Assembly: GCA_054600435.1 (NCBI GenBank)
Contig: BAAIJX010000014.1
Coordinates: 372,001 to 436,000, forward strand
Direction of reading: 5' to 3'
Origin: Neophaeotheca triangularis
Taxonomy: Eukaryota
Length of the DNA: 64,000 nucleotides
A model generated the notes under the pieces. It saw only the letters and a list, made by a program, of their open reading frames with translations. It made no database searches and was not told the origin of the DNA. Of this stretch, positions 104 through 61,805 are shown one piece after another (the stretch's first letter is position 1; every line of letters begins with the position of its first letter). Position numbers and translations under genes: made by a program.

Positions 104-3054
104 ATGTTCGTCTACAAGCGCGGTACGTTCTCCCATCATCTTCATTCGCAGTTCAAAAGGGTAGCAGCGCCGTAGTCGTAACACTGCCCGCCACCATATC
201 TTTTTGTTGCCATTTTCTCGATTTGAACACGACACTGACACGCTTCACAGATGGGCGCAAGGAACGCGTGCAATTCGACAAGATCACTGCTCGCGTATCG
301 AGGCTATGTTATGGCCTCGACCCGGAGCACGTTGACGCCGCCGCTATCACCATGAAGGTCATTGCCGGTGTCTACCAGGGCGTCACCACCATACAGTTGG
401 ACGATTTGGTACGTCTTCCCACCCATCGCGTACAAGGGGAGACTGATACTGATTCCATCCACAAATAGGCTGCAGAGACCGCCGCATACATGACCGTCAC
501 CCACCCAGACTACGCCATCCTCGCTGCTCGCATAGCAGTTTCCAATCTCCACAAGCAGACAAAGAAGCAGTTCTCCGCAGTCATACAAGACTTGTACAGC
601 TATGTCAACCCCAAGACAGGGAAAGATGCGCCGATGATCGCCAAGTACACATACGATATTGTCCAGAAGCACGCCGAGGAGCTCAACTCTGCCATCGTCT
701 ACGACCGTGACTTCAACTACCAGTACTTTGGTTTCAAGACACTCGAACGCTCGTACCTGCTTCGCCTTGACGGCAAGGTCGCCGAGCGTCCGCAGCACAT
801 GATCATGCGTGTGGCTGTAGGAATCCATGGAGAAGACATAGAAGCCGCCATTGAGACCTACAACTACATGTCGAACAAGTACTTCACACACGCCTCGCCG
901 ACCCTGTTCAGTGCAGGCACACCACAGGCTCAGCTCGCATCTTGCTTCCTCATCGACATGAAGGACGACAGCATAGACGGCATCTACGACACTCTGAAGA
1001 CATGCGCCATGATCTCCAAGAATGCCGGTGGTATTGGCTTCAACTGCCACCGCATCAGAGCCACAGGTTCCTACATCAGCGGTACCAACGGTACTTCCAA
1101 CGGCCTCGTACCATTGCTCCGTGTTTACAACAACACTGCGCGTTATGTCGACCAGGGTGGCAACAAGCGTCCAGGTGCCTTCGCCGTCTACCTCGAGCCG
1201 TGGCACGCGGACATGTTCCAGTTCCTCGACCTTCGTAAGAACCACGGCAAGGAGGAGGTTCGTGCTCGCGACCTCTTTTATGCCCTCTGGATTCCCGATC
1301 TGTTCATGAAGCGTGTTGAGCAGAACAGCACTTGGACTCTGATGTGCCCCAACGAGTGCCCTGGCCTCGCCGATGTTTACGGCGACGAGTTCGAGGAGCT
1401 GTACGAGCGCTACGAGAGGGAAGGCAAGGGACGTGAGACCGTCAGAGCACAGAAACTCTGGTATGCCATCCTCGAGGCACAGACGGAGACTGGAACCCCT
1501 TTTATGTGTTACAAGGACGCCGCCAACCGCAAAAGCAACCAAAAGAACCTCGGCACCATTCGCAGCTCCAACCTCTGCACGGAGATTATGGAGTACACTG
1601 CCCCCGATGAGGTCGCCGTGTGCAACCTCGCATCTCTGGCTCTGCCTACCTACGTCGACGCTGTCAACGACACCTATGACTTTGCGAAGCTGCACGAAGT
1701 CACTCAGGTTGTCACGAAGAACTTGAACAAGATCATCGAAATCAACCACTATCCTGTGCCAGAAGCTCGCAAGAGCAACTTCCGTCACAGGCCTATCGGT
1801 CTGGGTGTTAGCGGTCTCGCTGACGCCTTCCTCGCCCTTCGCATGCCTTTCGACTCGGACGAGGCCCGTCAGCTGAACAAGCAGATCTTCGAGACCATCT
1901 ACCACGCTGCTTTGACCGCCTCTTGCGATCTTGCTGAGAAGCTTGGCCCATATGAGACTTACGAAGGGTCCCCTGTCTCGAAGGGCGAGCTTCAGTATGA
2001 GATGTGGGGTGTTACACCCACTGATCTCTGGGACTGGGAATCTCTCAAGGCCAAGATTGCCCAACATGGCGTCCGCAATTCTCTCCTCGTCGCACCCATG
2101 CCGACGGCATCCACCTCGCAGATCATGGGTTTCAACGAGTGCTTCGAGCCCTACACCAGCAACATCTATTCCCGTCGTGTGCTCGCGGGTGAGTTCCAGG
2201 TTGTTAACCCTTGGCTGCTCAAGGACCTCGTCGACCGTGGTCTCTGGTCCGACAACATGAAGAACCGCATCATTGCCGACGGTGGCTCGATTCAGCGCGT
2301 GCCCAATATCCCCGACGACCTCAAAGCACTTTACAAGACCGTCTGGGAGCTTTCCCAACGTCATATTGTGCAAATGGCCGCCGACCGTGGTGCTTTCATC
2401 GACCAATCGCAATCCCTCAACATCCACATGAAGGAGCCCACCATGGGCAAGATCACCAGCATGCACTTCACAGGCTGGAAGCTCGGTCTCAAGACCGGCA
2501 TGTACTACCTGCGCACCATGGCTGCATCGGCCCCGATTCAGTTCACCGTCGACCAAGAGGCACTCAACGTCGTCGACACCAACGTCGCCAAGAACGTTGC
2601 AGCCAAGAAGCGCGCTGCCACCGGCAACATCCCCCAGAAACCCGCCGTCCCAAGCCCGATGTACCAAAGCGCTCAGCCCAACGGTACCAGCGAGAACGAA
2701 GCCCCAAAAGACGTTCCCACACCTGCCACCACTCCTCCCGCTGAATCCGAACCCAAGCAGCAAAAGCGCGAGTTCTCCCGCTCCAGCAGCAAGCGCGATA
2801 TCGTCAACCCCGAGTTCCCTGCCGATGTAGACGACGGCGAGAGCCCCAAGGTCCTCGCCACCGACGGCGTAAACGGAGTTCCCAAGGAAGAGGAGTTGCC
2901 CGAACCCAGCCAGCAGGCCGCCGGTGCTAAGAAGGATGGCCAGGAGGAGGACAAGGGCGCCGACAGCAAGGAACGCGAGGGCGACATCTACGCTGATGCC
3001 GTGCTTGCTTGCAGTATTGAGAACCCTGAGAGCTGTGTTATGTGCAGTGGTTAG
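104..3054 (+). CDS. RNR1: Ribonucleoside-diphosphate reductase large subunit (exons 104-122, 251-408, 469-3054; 920 aa)
   Basis: Spliced N-terminus [19 protein letters not shown] (ATP cone); SNLCTEI catalytic motif; [21 protein letters not shown]-terminal CVMCSG; two GTACGT..AG introns join in frame. Confidence 0.98.
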
Positions 3055-3738
3055 ATGTAATTTATGCATGCGTGGGACGAAGAATTTGACTGATATGCGC
3101 TCGGCGTTTTCGAGATGGCTACTAGGCGTTTTGAGGAAACATGTGGGCACTGGACATGCAACGGATGGGATGGGACGGGATCGGTTTTGTTGGGACGAAT
3201 TGCGCTTCTTATGGATCGCTTGCGCGTATGTAGCATCTTGCCTCGATGGCATAGGTGCACTGCTTGAACAGTGGTATATGCTTGTACTTTGTGCTCTCGT
3301 ACAATACCTAATCCCGAGTCCAAAAACTAACCAACTAGTCCTTCCACGTTGGCCTGTAAGAAAGCACCGACCAGTTCCCAGCAGTCAGCTTCACTCGCCA
3401 ATCCCTTTTTCAAAGTAGGAAACACGTCTTGTCGCTCGGCTGTGGGAGTGCAGGCGGCGGCGAGATGATCTTCTGAGACATTCCACTAGCACGCCGACGT
3501 TAACAAGCTCGAACCCCATCTCAAAGCACTTTCAAGAATCGACGAAAAATACAGTTTAATGTGTACACGATGCGCGGAGAACCGGCTCCACAACACCAAA
3601 CCATGAAAAAAAAAAAACCCAGGGTATCTATCATGTGCTGCATCGCTCAACAGAGCCACGACCCAAACCCAAATAAACAGGCAAAAACCCCCAATCTTAT
3701 CAAGATCCTCGTTAATCCTCCCTACTCTCTCTCTCTCT

Positions 3739-5802
3739 CTAAAAGTCAAACCCACCCGTCAACCCCATGACATTCTCAGGATCCACAACGCCCCTAATCC
3801 GCCTCAACCTCTCCGCATTCTCCTCGCCATACACCTGCTCGGCCGTATAACTCCCAATGGCATAATTGGGATACGCGTTGCCCTCGACGTAAATACCCTC
3901 GTCCTTGGCGACGGCAATCAACCTATCGACGCTCGCGCGGATTTCGTCGCGCCAGTAGTCGTCGTCGCCGGCGTCGAGCCAGGCGAAGTAGAGGTTCAAC
4001 GGCAAGCCCGAGAGCGCGTGCGGGTAGGAGCTGTTGGTGGCGTGGCGGCCGTAGTCTTTGCCGAAGGGCTCGATGTCGTAGCTGAAGAAGATGCCGCTCG
4101 CGTTGAAGAGGCGGTAGTCTTGGGCTTCGGACCAGCAGGCTTGCATGAAGGGGATGGTGAGGGCGGTGGTGGTGAGGGTGTGGAAAGCGCCGCGGCGGCC
4201 CGCTTGGAGGTTCGACGGCGTCGACGAGGCGAAGGAGGCGTAGGGCTGCCGTTGCACGCCGTTGAGGATGGGTTGGATGGAGGCGAAGGGCGCGAAGACT
4301 TCGTCTGGTGGTGACGGCCCATCGTAGAAGACTAGCAGGATTGCGGACTCGGGGAAGCCGGTGTTGAGGGTGAGGATGACTTGGGCTTTTTCGTCGACTT
4401 CGTCGTCGTAGAATTTTTGCGTGGCGTTGATGATGGCGGGGACGTCGTCGGAGGCGTAGATTTGGTAGCCGCCGTAGACTTCGTAGTCTTGTTCGAAGGG
4501 GGTAAAGACGGTTTCGGTCACGAGGCCGAAGCGGTTGAGGCCCCCTTTGAGGGCGAAGAAGAGGTCTGGGGTGGTCTCGTTGACTTGGGTTAGGTTGCCT
4601 GTGGGGGTCACTAGGGTAAAGCTTTGGACGGTGTCGACTGTCAAGCCTGCGTAGATTCGTCAGCTGGTAGGCCGGCTGTGTTGTGCTTGTCGGTGTGGAC
4701 TAACCGTATTGGTTCGTGAACCAGGAGTAGCCTCCACCGAGTGTGAAGCCGCCAGTACCCGGCCCTTGTACTCTGCCGCCGTTGAGTTGCAATCCTGTGC
4801 CGTTCATCTTCTCATAGGCATCAGACCAGAGCTGGTGGCAAATATTAGTTTCTGTTTAGAAAGGGCCATGGATGTGCCAGCAGACTTACGTTACCCATAC
4901 CGACCGTCACACTGGTACGGTCATCGTTGATATCGACGTGATCCAACCTGTTCAGAGTAATCTGCTCATGTTAGCAAAAAGGACTTGCTATCTAGAAAAG
5001 CTCTTTACCCACCAAGATTCCCTCTGTCGAAGAGAAGCCCTGGTTAGAAGCATGTCCGCCGGACTTGATAGCGAAGGGTGTTCTACTGTCGCCAATGAGC
5101 TTCATCGTAATGGCTGCGTCTTCGTTCGATCCGACCTCGACGACACACGACGATCGTTGTGTCGAAGAGGGCATGTAGTGTTTGAGTCTTTGAGTATATT
5201 GCCAGAAGGCCACTGGGATTGAGCGTCAGTCGATTCGATTCGCCGGCATCCGTGCGATCTCGCAACTTACGGGGATAAACCACTTCGCTATCGTCTGAGA
5301 TTTGATTGCTGATTTCACTGCATACGCCTGCTGTTGTGTCGTTGTAACGGGACATGCTGGCTATGAGGTTCGCAATACGGTTGGCGAGGGTGTCTGCTTC
5401 ATCGGTGGCTTCGTCGGTGGCGTCGTTTATTGCGTCCGTCATGCTGCTAAGGACGTCGTTCGCTCCGACGGCAACGGTTCCCGCCGCATCACTTGCATCG
5501 CTGACCACGCTGCTTACTGCCTCTTGTCCGCTTTCGGCAGCACTGCTCGCTGCGGCCTCGGCGGTGCTAACAGCTCCCTCGACCCCGTCGATTGCCGTGC
5601 TGGCAGCCCCTTGTACCCCATCGACTACAGTGCTCGCAGCTCCTTCTACTCCATCCCTAACCGTGCTTACCGCGCCACCGATGGCGCTGCTGGCAGCGTC
5701 TCTCGTGTCGTCTACCGCGCTGTTGATGTCGTCGATAAAATCGAACTGTGCATTGCTGGATGTGGCCAAAGACAACAGAGCAAGCGCCCCAAGGAAACGC
5801 AT
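3739..5802 (-). CDS. Secreted FAD-linked oxidoreductase (FAD_binding_4 / berberine-bridge-like), multi-exon
   Basis: Signal peptide MRFLGALALLSLATSSNA; FAIKSGGHASNQGFSST covalent-FAD motif; DLFFALKGGLNRFGLVT; C-terminal YPNYA...YGEENAERLRRIRGVVDPENV. Confidence 0.9.
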
Positions 5803-57778: not shown

Positions 57779-59864
57779 ATGTCAAGCGTGAACGCTGCTG
57801 AGGCTTCCGGGAAATCTGGTGAGTAATTTGCATCCGATCGAACAGTTGGCTGCGACCCTACTCGGCTGCTGGGGCTGAAGATCGATTGAGTGGTCGCCAG
57901 GCTGACGCAAGCAACCATGTAGCTTCCAAAAAGAAGAACAAGAAGAGCAAGAAGAAGGCCAATGGCAAGGCCAAAGAGGGAGCCGGCCAGGAACACATAA
58001 ATGGTGTTGCAAACCAGGCGCAGGACGATGGGGACGACGACGATGATGGGGATGATGCTGGCGAACAGCAACAGCCACTGGTCAGAAATACATTGCTGGC
58101 TTGATACCTTGGAGTCTGCGACTGACTTGGCTGACACAGTCACGAGCGAATTCTGTAAAGCATCAAGAGCAAGACACGTCGAACGAGCCTTCTGCGACGC
58201 CTTCTGAACCTACGACAGCTGCAACGGACGAGCAACCCCCAAGTCAAGACCCTCCTTCAAGCAATGGAGCCCAGTATAGCAGCTCCGACATCGTAAAAGA
58301 AGAAACTGGCGGTGACAACAACCTGGAAGCGCAGTTGGAAGATGCAGCTGCGCCAACAGCCAATCTCGATGCTGAAACCCGCTTCGCAGCCCTCCAAACC
58401 GAACGGGACAATCTTCGCAGTGAAGTGACGTCTCTACGCAAAAGCCTCGAGAGCTTACAAGCAGCTTCCTCAAACAGCAACGATGCCGCCGACCAGGACC
58501 AAAATGAGAGCAAGTCAGACTCTGAAGAGCTCAACAACTTGCGCGAAGAACTCGAGCAGACTCAACAGGGCAAAGAGCATGCCGAAACCCAGTACCGCAA
58601 TCTGCTAGGCAAAGTCAACACCATCCGCTCCCAGCTAGGTGAACGACTGAAACAAGACGCAGAAGAGCTTGCGCAAGCTCGACAGCAAATTGAAGAGCTG
58701 GAAGGGGACAAGACTCAGACCGGACAAGAGAACGAGCGACTACAAGCTAGGATGGAAGAATTGGATTCACAAATCAAATCACAGAATGCCGAACTCGAAG
58801 ACCTCCGCTCCAGAACCCACCTCTCTACTTCCAACTGGGCCAAAGAGCGCGACGACATGTTATCTCGCGAAGCCTTCGTGCGAGAAGAATACGAAGCGGC
58901 GAAGCAAGCGATGCAAGACTGGGAGATCCTAGCAACGGAAGAGCGCTCCCGCCGCGAAAACCTCGAAGAGCGCGCCCAAGAGCTCGAAGAGCAACTCACC
59001 TCTCAGACCACCCTCTACGAACGCTTGCGCGGCGAAGCGGAAACCCAAAACTCAACGGTCGAAGGTCTGCAACGCGCCCTGCGAGATCTTCAAGAGGAAC
59101 GAAAACGCGAGCTCCGCGAAATGGTAGAGCAATCGCAATCGCAACTCGAAGAACTGCGCTCGCAAGCCAAAACCGCCGAGACTCGAACCACCGACCTCCA
59201 AACCCAACTCAGCAGCACGCAAAAGGACCTCGAACGCGCCCTTCCCTTTGAGCGCGAAGTCAAGGAAAAGAACCTGCTAATCGGCAAACTGCGCCACGAA
59301 GCGGTAATCCTCAACGACCACCTAACCAAAGCTTTGCGTTTCCTCAAACGCGGCAAGCCCGAAGACAATGTCGACCGCCAACTCGTGACAAACCATTTCC
59401 TGCACTTCCTCGCTCTCGACCGCTCCGATCCGAAGAAATTCCAGGTTTTGCAGCTGATTGCCGCGTTGTTGGCCTGGAACGAGCAGCAGCGCGAGCAAGC
59501 GGGACTGTTGCGTCAGGGCAGTGGCGTGGGTGGCTTGTCTGCTGGGGGAAGCTTGAGGTTGCCTGTTAGTCCTTTTAGGCGCTCCGGCAGTACGCCGGCG
59601 CTGAATGATTTGACCGCGCCGCCGGACAGTCCTGGGGGTAAGGAGACGTTGGCGGAGTTGTGGAGTGATTTCTTGGAGAGGGAGGCTGAGGCCGGTGGTG
59701 GTGGGGGTGGGGATAGTAGGAGGGGGAGTGTAGTGCAGGGGAGTCAGAGCGCTAAGGGTAGTCCTGTTGTTGGGAATGCGAGAGCCGCTAGTCCGGAAGT
59801 CAGGAGGAAGGAGAGTCAAGGTCAGGGTCAGAATATCGGGGCTGCCGGGGGCGGTGGTGGGTGA
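57779..59864 (+). CDS. RUD3: Golgin Rud3/GMAP-210 family (exons 57779-57818, 57923-58080, 58140-59864)
   Basis: Long coiled coil; EREVKEKNLLIGKLRHEAVILNDHLTKAL; GRAB domain DNVDRQLVTNHFLHFL..KKFQVLQLIAALLAW; LAELWSDFLE. Confidence 0.93.
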
Positions 59865-60042
59865 GGCTGGTGTACTTGGTATAATACGTTCTTCTTGAGC
59901 TTGTCTTTTCTCCTCTGCTTCCATTGTTTACCAAATCTACAAGCTCGACTGAAGCTCACCGTTATGCGAACAAAAGCTTTAAGCCCCCTCGACACACGAT
60001 AAAAGGAAGCCTCACGAAAGACCAGCAAGATGACAACGAGAC

Positions 60043-60154
60043 CCGAACCTCTTGGATTTGAACCAAGGCCTGCTCGCAAACATGAGTTCACCAGGCCCGT
60101 TGGGTGTGTAATGCCGGGGCTGATGCGCTTTCACATCCACTACACTAAGGACCT
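60043..60154 (-). ncRNA. tRNA-like Pol III element (degenerate or rearranged relative of the 60450-60728 gene)
   Basis: A box TAGTGTAGTGG (60147-60137); perfect T arm CTTGG-TTCAAAT-CCAAG (60067-60051); CGAGC-AGGC before the T arm; acceptor stem only 5 of 7 pairs; no anticodon loop. Confidence 0.6.
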
Positions 60155-60436
60155 CTGGTTGTTGGAGGATAGTGGTGACATGGGCCTGGTGGTATATGAT
60201 ATTTGCGAAAGGACAAGCGGCGGTGTCGGTTCATGCGGCTGTCCTGGCAGAGTGCAAACGAAGAGTCCCGGGCCGAGAGTGCTAGCATTCTCTCTTCGAG
60301 CACGAACAGGATAGAGCCGTAGATTCAGGTATGTACGAGAATGTCGAAACGAAAATTTAGAGGAGAAGGCAAGAATTCGACCTTCAGCGAATGTAGCTAC
60401 TAGATCCGATGAGAAAGCTCAGGAGCCCATTCAAGC

Positions 60437-60446
60437 AAAAAGAAAA
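60437..60446 (-). terminator. Pol III terminator TTTTCTTTTT
   Basis: T-run immediately 3' of the tRNA-like gene. Confidence 0.75.
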
Positions 60447-60449
60447 GTC

Positions 60450-60728
60450 TGGATTCTCTCAGGATCGAACTGAGGCCTGCCCGTAAATCTACCCCTGCGG
60501 CCCAAGTCGCGAAGTTCGCGAGGGAGCGAAGTGCTCCAACTCAGCAATCTGCCGAGTTCGACCACTAGGGTCGACGCCCTTGATGGGCAAGACCGCCCAA
60601 TCCGGGCGGATGGATCAACCGATCGTCACCAGTTGACCCTGGGCTCCGAGCGACTTAGAGGCCGCGTGGAGCCCGCGGTGGCTGCAGAGGTGCGAGATCG
60701 AGCCGTGCTACCACTGCACTAAGAATCC
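60450..60728 (-). tRNA. Atypical tRNA or tRNA-like gene, nominal anticodon CTC (Glu), with a 208-nt intron (60692-60485)
   Basis: Acceptor GGATTCT/AGAATCC + A73; T8 A9; D arm GTGC-AGTGGTA-GCAC; anticodon stem GCTCG/CGGGC; variable loop AGGC; T arm CTCAG-TTCGATC-CTGAG; T-run terminator 3 nt downstream. Confidence 0.85.
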
Positions 60729-61805
60729 CTCGTTGTGCTTTGGTGGCGGCGGTAAGGGCTTTGGCGTGTATGTAGTCTGGAGAAGCCGGCAGAGGTGTCA
60801 AACATTGACCCGCAACTCGGTGGTATGCGGCTATCCGGTAGCTTGCAAACGGCGAAAGGGATGGCTCCTGGGCAATGCCCAAATTGTCTCTCTCTCAAGA
60901 CAGAAATGGTTACGGTCCATGGCACTGAGTCTCAATCGCCATGTCCGCGTTCAGTGGCCCTGACAGTCCTCGACAAGAGAAAAGGCCAAGTGCTCAGTGA
61001 TCCAGTTGACCTTGCCCATCATCAGCAGCGGGTTATGGAACCTTTCGAAGCCCAGTTTCCCTCACTGTGGTCCTCCTAAAGGGGACCCAGAGATGCTGTG
61101 TATGCGGAGATTCTTCCTTTCCTCCGTGTTTCCTTGATAGGAACCTCCATGTCATTCCTGCTCTTAGTCCAAGAACCCCTCTCTTGGAAATGCGTGGATG
61201 CGGAGAGATGGAGATGTTCAGGTAGTTGATCAGTGAGCAACTCGAGGTTTGCGATTTAGCCGCCACAGAAATCACTTGGCTTGCAGCTGCTTCTTGCAGG
61301 ACCTCAGCTTGCACGTCACGAATCGTGCCCACATATTCACCGGTCTACAGATCGCACGCAGCACTCTTCGACGAGTCAAACAATCACTTAGTTGACAGTC
61401 GACAGGAGAGCTAGGTCGCGAAGAGAGTAGTACGGATGAGCCAAAGAGTGAAGTCGGCGTCCCACAGCTCTTTCTCGGCGAGCGGTTCTAAGGAATGACC
61501 ATCTCCCAATGCTTCCAAGATTCCTAGATGCTTGGAAAGCAGCTTCAAGACGCACTCCGGGCCTCAAAGTGCATCATCGCATGACTGCTCATGCAGCGGC
61601 TATTATGCTCCCAGTCCTTGCAGGCGATGTTCAGTCAAGTCTTCCCCCAATGTCCGGCTAAATGAGCGTGGAGGCGAAGGCTCTCTGGGCGAGGTATGAG
61701 AGGAGCTGTACCCAGGATGCCTCTGTAAGCAGATATAAAGAGATGGCGGCCTTGACCGGGCTCGAAACCAACGGTATTCCACAAACCATCAGACGACCAA
61801 GCAAC

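Follow-up and report, generated by a model that had tools for sequence, protein, structure and literature searches.

A predicted nuclear tRNA gene with anticodon CTC and a structured 208-nt intron at position 37/38 in a black fungus

What is a tRNA-shaped locus whose anticodon loop is interrupted by 208 nt: a tRNA gene with an overlong intron, or a tRNA body kept for the sake of the insert? The question was raised by one locus in the window (the whole 64-kb stretch of DNA that was analysed). An earlier note had suggested that the tRNA body may be retained as a Pol III promoter and processing cassette that releases a functional, possibly circularised, intron RNA. Judged from its sequence, the locus is a genuine tRNA gene, nuclear and of the Pol III type, with anticodon CTC and a 208-nt intron at position 37/38. 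We consider it probable, with limited confidence, that this is an ordinary endonuclease-spliced tRNA gene whose unusually long intron is a passenger.

Fungal genes in the window code for TCF25/Rqc1, a protein with a GRAB domain, a sulfatase, a GH30-like protein and a sugar transporter. Between the TCF25 protein and its matches in Friedmanniomyces, Cladosporium, Hortaea, Meristemomyces and other Dothideomycetes, identity is 62-70%, which indicates a host of the Capnodiales/Mycosphaerellales kind within that class. The GRAB gene and the GH30-like gene flank a 2.6-kb stretch that has no long ORFs and contains the tRNA gene. Elsewhere in the window, two ORFs overlap on opposite strands (304-3252, minus strand, 982 aa; 490-3054, plus strand, 854 aa), and the 982-aa ORF had no Pfam match. 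Three DNA data sets carrying one organism label (X1, X2 and X3) were used for comparison, the window probably deriving from X1. X3 does not cover the stretch and gives no evidence of absence.

The gene occupies 279 nt of the minus strand (60728..60450), where all the features described in the earlier note were found. It consists of three parts:

60693..60728, minus strand: exon 1 (36 nt), comprising the 5' strand of the acceptor stem, the D arm, the 5' strand of the anticodon stem and loop positions 32-37 with the anticodon CTC (ARAGORN and fold)
60485..60692, minus strand: intron (208 nt) at the canonical position 37/38
60450..60484, minus strand: exon 2 (35 nt), comprising A38, the 3' strand of the anticodon stem, a 4-nt variable region, the T arm, the 3' strand of the acceptor stem and the discriminator A73

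The D loop has 7 nt, so that standard position 37 is the 36th base of exon 1. When the exons were joined by script, ARAGORN recognized the 71-nt body as a standard tRNA, tRNA-Glu(ctc), with CTC at positions 34-36. The insertion site given in the earlier note was thus confirmed, as removal of the 208 nt leaves a clean cloverleaf. So was the full pairing of its four stems (acceptor 7/7, D 4/4, anticodon 5/5 with one G-T, T 5/5; ARAGORN and fold). All four stems also formed with pair probabilities of at least 0.88 in an unconstrained fold of the 279-nt precursor. Read from the sequence, the tertiary positions of the body are standard (T8, A14, G18 G19, G15/C48, T54 T55 C56). The locus combines the cloverleaf, the 37/38 site, the splice motif and the Pol III signals of a Sen/TSEN-spliced nuclear tRNA gene.

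With default settings, ARAGORN found no tRNA in the 64-kb window, and Rfam gave no tRNA call in it at the gathering threshold or at E up to 10. Both miss the gene because of the length of its intron, and this failure is not evidence against the gene. The earlier note had proposed running ARAGORN with a raised maximum intron length, and a search with introns allowed recovered the gene at exactly 60450..60728. It misplaced the 3' intron boundary and drew a 187-nt intron together with a long variable arm. The same search applied to 40 dinucleotide shuffles of the window yielded 2 hits in total, one of them with an intron of no more than 300 nt.

Two other calls were made in the window with introns allowed, a tRNA-Ser with a 980-nt intron (c[1090,2164], minus strand) and a tRNA-Leu with a 611-nt intron ([3851,4554], plus strand). 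They lie within ORFs 304-3252 and 3739-4644, respectively. We treated both as false positives on the grounds of their location in long ORFs and of unpaired stem positions in the one drawing that was inspected. The three hits in the real window, as compared with 2 in 40 shuffles, are above expectation.

Would such a precursor present a substrate to the tRNA splicing endonuclease? The unconstrained MFE structure of the 279-nt precursor is a cloverleaf joined to a helix, a 3-nt bulge, 4 bp, a second 3-nt bulge and a further helix, with the following elements:

60695..60698, minus strand: 5' strand of the central helix (positions 32-35, ATCT)
60487..60490, minus strand: intron strand of the central helix (AGAT), which includes the anticodon-intron pair with A32
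60692..60694, minus strand: 5' bulge C-G-C (C36, G37 and the first intron base), with the cut site after the second base
60484..60486, minus strand: 3' bulge T-T-A (T, T and A38), with the cut site after the second base
60684..60691, minus strand: 5' strand of an 8-bp closing helix
60491..60498, minus strand: 3' strand of the 8-bp closing helix

The pairing of ATCT with AGAT and the TTA bulge at the 3' splice site, both described in the earlier note, therefore appear in a fold on which no constraint was placed. The motif is fuller than had been stated there, with a matching 5' C-G-C bulge followed by the 8-bp helix. In the precursor ensemble, the central 4 bp had a pair probability of 0.43-0.45, the helices flanking them of at least 0.91 and the 8-bp helix of at least 0.96. 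If each bulge is cut behind its second base, an anticodon loop of exactly 7 nt is left. In the available part of their review, Phizicky and Hopper (2023, PMC10275265) define the bulge-helix-bulge (BHB) motif by a helix of N32-N35 with the intron and by cut sites within the neighbouring 3-nt bulges. The predicted motif fits this definition, with its pairing at 32-35 and the cuts in the two flanking bulges. It has the strict, archaeal-style form of the BHB, in contrast to the looser eukaryotic form.

The signals for transcription by Pol III that the earlier note had listed (A box, B box and T-run terminator) are present on the minus strand:

60711..60721, minus strand: A-box-like internal promoter element (tRNA positions 8-19), read from the sequence
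60462..60470, minus strand: B-box core GTTCGATCC (positions 53-61), read from the sequence
60437..60446, minus strand: putative Pol III terminator T4-C-T5, starting 4 nt past the 3' end of the tRNA, read from the sequence

We take the elements at 60711..60721 and 60462..60470 to be the A and B boxes on the basis of the consensus. The terminator consists of a T4 run at 60446..60443 and a T5 run at 60441..60437, and no T4 run was found within the 208-nt intron. The two boxes are ~250 bp apart. Distances of up to ~365 bp are reported to be compatible with transcription in the available part of PMC12498455 (citing its ref. 44), and the spacing found here is within this tolerance.

Whether the mature product would act as tRNA-Glu is a separate question. 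The body combines a CTC anticodon with G1-C72, A32 and G37, which the earlier note had called odd, and also has A38. All 17 tRNA-Glu genes of A. niger, as given in S1 Table of PMC6108506, start with TCC (T1-A72) and have the loop C-T-N-T-C-A-C. In a comparison by eye with this one species of another class, G1, A32, G37 and A38 were shared by 0/17 genes (C32, A37 and C38 there), which substantiates the atypical character of the body. The 11 A. niger Glu(CTC) genes of that table have the CTC anticodon and the 4-nt variable region in common with the gene described here. They differ from it in being intronless, in T1-A72 and C32/A37/C38, and in their D, anticodon and T stems. By eye, A. niger tRNA-Gly(GCC) is nearer (71 nt, D loop AGTGGTA, variable region AGGC, discriminator A), a likeness that is unscored and again concerns one species of another class. 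Three 11-12-nt pieces of the gene were absent from the A. niger gene models in the same table. With A. niger as the only reference, the gene thus has the YTC anticodon of the tRNA-Glu isotype and a body unlike the canonical fungal tRNA-Glu. Because of this dissimilarity, the tRNA may not be charged with Glu and may not decode at all.

Exact patterns of the 5'-half and 3'-half exons matched 0 loci in metagenome contigs and 0 in prokaryote genome contigs, most of these contigs being short. As the metagenome collection includes proteins of related Dothideomycetes, this exact form of the body does not seem to be widely shared. To judge by these patterns, the tRNA is not one that is conserved widely. 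The open-access full-text literature likewise gave no match to a 24-nt piece of exon 1.

A body that differs from the A. niger Glu set and has no exact match elsewhere could belong to a decaying or non-decoding tRNA-like duplicate. Such a copy may be transcribed, but its identity would have drifted and its intron would have gained insertions, with neither product under selection. A comparison of tRNAscan-SE 1.3 with 2.0 on 432 fungal genomes, in the part of it available, counts 3398 isotype mismatches (4.2%). Ambiguous fungal tRNA calls are hence common, which would suit a copy of this kind. We nevertheless regard decay as fairly unlikely, given that the X1 gene is intact in all 21 stem pairs, in the tertiary positions, in the splice motif, in the intron free of T runs and in the terminator.

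We then have to ask whether the intron itself could be the product. It has a G+C content of 63% and folds with -116.9 kcal/mol into 73 pairs, 7 of which are G-T. Compared with dinucleotide shuffles, the tRNA strand had a z-score of -7.7 and the opposite strand one of -6.0; a second run of the former with the frame offset by one base gave -7.2. After G+C correction, the intron was the most stable 208-nt segment on the minus strand (1227 windows across the 64 kb). Most of the fold lies in one domain:

60499..60683, minus strand: intron interior, a 3-bp helix closing a multiloop of seven hairpins (fold)

The strongest plus-strand fold of the window was found at 4369-4680 (-99 kcal/mol per 208 nt, residual z of about -2.9). 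It falls inside ORF 3739-4644, on the other strand.

The strength of the intron fold on the minus strand is one of several observations that favour a tRNA body acting as Pol III promoter and Sen handle, with a stable 208-nt seven-hairpin non-coding intron RNA as the product. We hold this to be unlikely. The difference between the sense and antisense z-scores and the 7 G-T pairs, which form on the tRNA strand alone, are in its favour, as is a body atypical for its anticodon. Freed tRNA introns of yeast are, moreover, reported to regulate mRNAs by base pairing in the available part of PMC13079951. Against it, none of the features of a working tRNA has been lost from the body, while a mere promoter would need no more than the A and B boxes plus the splice motif. 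A search against 4227 Rfam families at E up to 10 returned two chance-level hits and nothing else, none of them a box C/D or H/ACA snoRNA family. A box C/D RNA was considered on account of a C-box-like word in the loop region of a 12-bp hairpin and a CTGA in a 9-bp hairpin. The candidate is weak and was rejected, since both words are locked in strong hairpins and one position of the C box is off. A group I intron was ruled out by size and by the absence of an Rfam match.

The X2 data set provided a second genome in which the locus could be followed. The long intron is present in an X2 contig at full depth (101) that spans 60410..60721. Relative to the window, this contig has a 3-nt insertion, which lies in the intron, and 7 substitutions, of which 6 are intronic and one (G46 to A) affects exon 2. 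Except for the one exon change, which is tolerated, the full-depth contig is as intact as the X1 gene, which again argues against decay. The divergence between X1 and X2 was 7/312 plus the 3-nt insertion for the gene contig and ranged from 2/287 to 13/197 for the flanks. The gene value is within the range of the flanks, and the substitution rate therefore gives no sign of purifying selection. A duplicate in decay would show the same, its divergence being no lower than that of its surroundings.

Where do the intronic substitutions fall? On the fold of the window, 4 of the 6 are at unpaired positions and 2 turn C-G into T-G, so that no pair is broken. When the X2 allele was refolded, two of the changes at unpaired positions made new pairs and lengthened two hairpins. 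The energy of the whole precursor was -143.2 kcal/mol for X2 as compared with -143.3 kcal/mol for the window, and the intron with only the 6 X2 substitutions folded with -116.8 kcal/mol. Random sets of six substitutions (n = 1500) averaged -107.6 or -107.0 kcal/mol, depending on which of two transition shares was used, and only 4% or 3.3% of them, respectively, reached the observed energy. We take the X2 substitutions as a modest sign that the fold of the intron may be kept, a pattern that would be in line with a functional intron. It comes from just 6 substitutions, and the same X2 allele has its 3-nt insertion inside a stem.

In these models, the intron fold appears stronger than a neutral passenger needs and seems to have been kept across the 6 substitutions, which also fits a functional intron. 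A functional intron would agree with the strong fold, the asymmetry between the strands and the pattern in X2, yet these do not separate it from a passenger. If the intron is indeed a passenger, its length would be tolerated since the hairpins each fold locally, without disturbing either the tRNA body or the splice motif. The need for local folding would in turn explain why the observed substitutions preserve the hairpins.

The surroundings of the gene are more variable in X2. The X2 flanks differ by 0.7 to 6.6% from the window and occur as two haplotypes, each at about half depth, which suggests that the strain is diploid or hybrid. Diploid or hybrid strains are known in some black yeasts. 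Over 60243-60439, the two haplotypes, which were seen in 59800-61400, differ by 3.6% and 6.6% from the window.

Besides the full-depth contig, X2 has half-depth contigs that match the exons. One contig contains exon 1 with three changes in the 5' strand of the acceptor stem and one change just upstream. Of the intron, the first 15 bases and the last 28 are matched as well, and the 165 nt of interior between them (60513..60677) are skipped. A precursor constructed without these 165 nt kept the cloverleaf and the BHB in its fold and had a 43-nt hairpin intron. As a lead only, this contig may represent a related short-intron gene, in which case the long intron would be the apically expanded form of that hairpin. 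At the joint of this contig, the letters between the two sides are undefined, and the shorter side has 30 letters. Other half-depth contigs join 60728 back to 60427, and 60136 to 60452. These joints, among them the gene's 5' end linked to trailer-like sequence, may reflect a tandem or rearranged extra copy in one haplotype. The X2 joints in general have sides of 26-37 letters at 80% likeness, an unreliable kind of evidence that can provide leads only. In one half-depth contig, an A-to-G change at 60722 would turn pair 7-66 into a C-A mismatch if the contig belongs to this locus, in agreement with decay.

Such contigs raise the possibility of a mobile insertion. The gene could be a tRNA-derived SINE, or a small transposon could have inserted into a tRNA gene, the 208 nt or the 165-nt interior being the mobile part. 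The exon-matching X2 contigs, one lacking the interior and one with the 5' end joined to the trailer, imply that the locus or its family varies in copy number and structure, and they are the evidence in favour. Many dispersed copies with target-site duplications were named in the earlier note as the mark of a SINE. No part of the 279 nt recurs in the 64-kb window, where the best other matches are 11-12 nt long and no target-site duplication was seen. No direct repeats flank the intron, there are no terminal inverted repeats, and zero letters are shared at the X2 joint. An 11-nt direct repeat (82%) between the D arm and the intron was judged to be due to chance. Moreover, X1 matches the stretch with its source contig only, and the insert lies exactly within the splice motif. 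A SINE keeps a tRNA-like head, to which an unrelated body and tail are attached. Here, unlike in a SINE, both tRNA halves are intact and colinear. On this evidence, we consider a mobile element very improbable.

How exceptional is an intron of 208 nt? In the parts of the literature available, eukaryotic tRNA introns are given as 6-133 nt (PMC4090602), and as 14-60 nt for budding yeast, with a maximum of 133 nt elsewhere (PMC10275265). The available part of a fungal study states that no fungal tRNA intron exceeded 100 nt and that 14 longer ARAGORN models were discarded (PMC6108506). A length of ~64 nt is termed 'unusually long' in a green alga (PMC13578239, as excerpted), and metazoan tRNA introns of ~40 to 250 nt are mentioned by Lu et al. 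(2015, PMC4536317, as excerpted). The 208 nt found here are about twice the stated fungal limit, yet within the printed metazoan range. In our search of the open-access literature, we found no description of a long fungal tRNA intron.

The gene shares its site, the pairing at 32-35, the 3-nt bulges, the A and B boxes and the terminator with the Sen/TSEN-dependent 37/38 introns of eukaryotes, which in fungi are followed by Trl1/Tpt1 joining. It differs from them in the 208-nt length and the seven-hairpin interior. With the long introns of metazoa that give rise to tricRNAs, such as the 113-nt intron of Drosophila tRNA-Tyr, it has in common a long structured intron at 37/38 and release by TSEN, the latter being predicted here. 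tricRNAs, however, are circularised by RtcB, whereas fungal genomes are reported to be without RtcB and the tRNA introns of yeast to be linear (available parts of PMC6614914 and PMC4536317). The circularised intron considered in the earlier note is therefore unlikely, and a functional intron RNA would be left without that part of its account (PMC6614914, same part). The archaeal tRNA-Trp intron that carries a box C/D RNA (PMC4090602, as excerpted) is comparable as a longer-than-usual 37/38 BHB intron with a possible RNA cargo. It belongs to a different domain of life, and the intron described here has neither convincing C/D or H/ACA boxes nor an Rfam match.

We therefore return to an ordinary endonuclease-spliced tRNA gene with a long passenger intron, for which the sequence features would imply the following course of events. 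TFIIIC would bind the internal A and B boxes across their ~250 bp, and Pol III would pass through the T4-free intron and halt at T4-C-T5. After trimming of the precursor ends, the Sen/TSEN endonuclease would cut within the two 3-nt bulges of the BHB. The halves would then be ligated by the fungal Trl1/Tpt1 pathway to give the 71-nt tRNA. The intron would be freed as a linear RNA and would normally be degraded. Fungi are reported to use Trl1, and yeast tRNA introns to be degraded by Xrn1 (PMC6614914, PMC4536317 and PMC4090602, in the parts available). Most likely, the intron would have no function of its own and would have arisen from a short hairpin intron whose apex grew into the seven-hairpin domain.

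Our findings describe an extreme case among protein-spliced tRNA introns. The annotation of fungal tRNA genes presumes short introns, and default ARAGORN and Rfam overlooked this gene. Cut-offs such as the discarding of models with introns of >100 nt (PMC6108506, in the part available) can hide real genes, and the upper intron length given in reviews may reflect the method of gene finding. Given the atypical body with its Glu anticodon, one may also ask what amino acid, if any, the tRNA would carry. That this tRNA-shaped gene of a black fungus is a delivery vehicle for an intron-derived non-coding RNA of ~208 nt, with the CTC body as a by-product, seems to us distinctly unlikely. If true, it would be a fungal counterpart, in linear form, to the tricRNAs of animals and to the C/D RNA carried by an archaeal intron. 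If the intron proved to be stable, the gene would offer a handy system for studying the purpose of tRNA introns in an organism that makes them in linear form.
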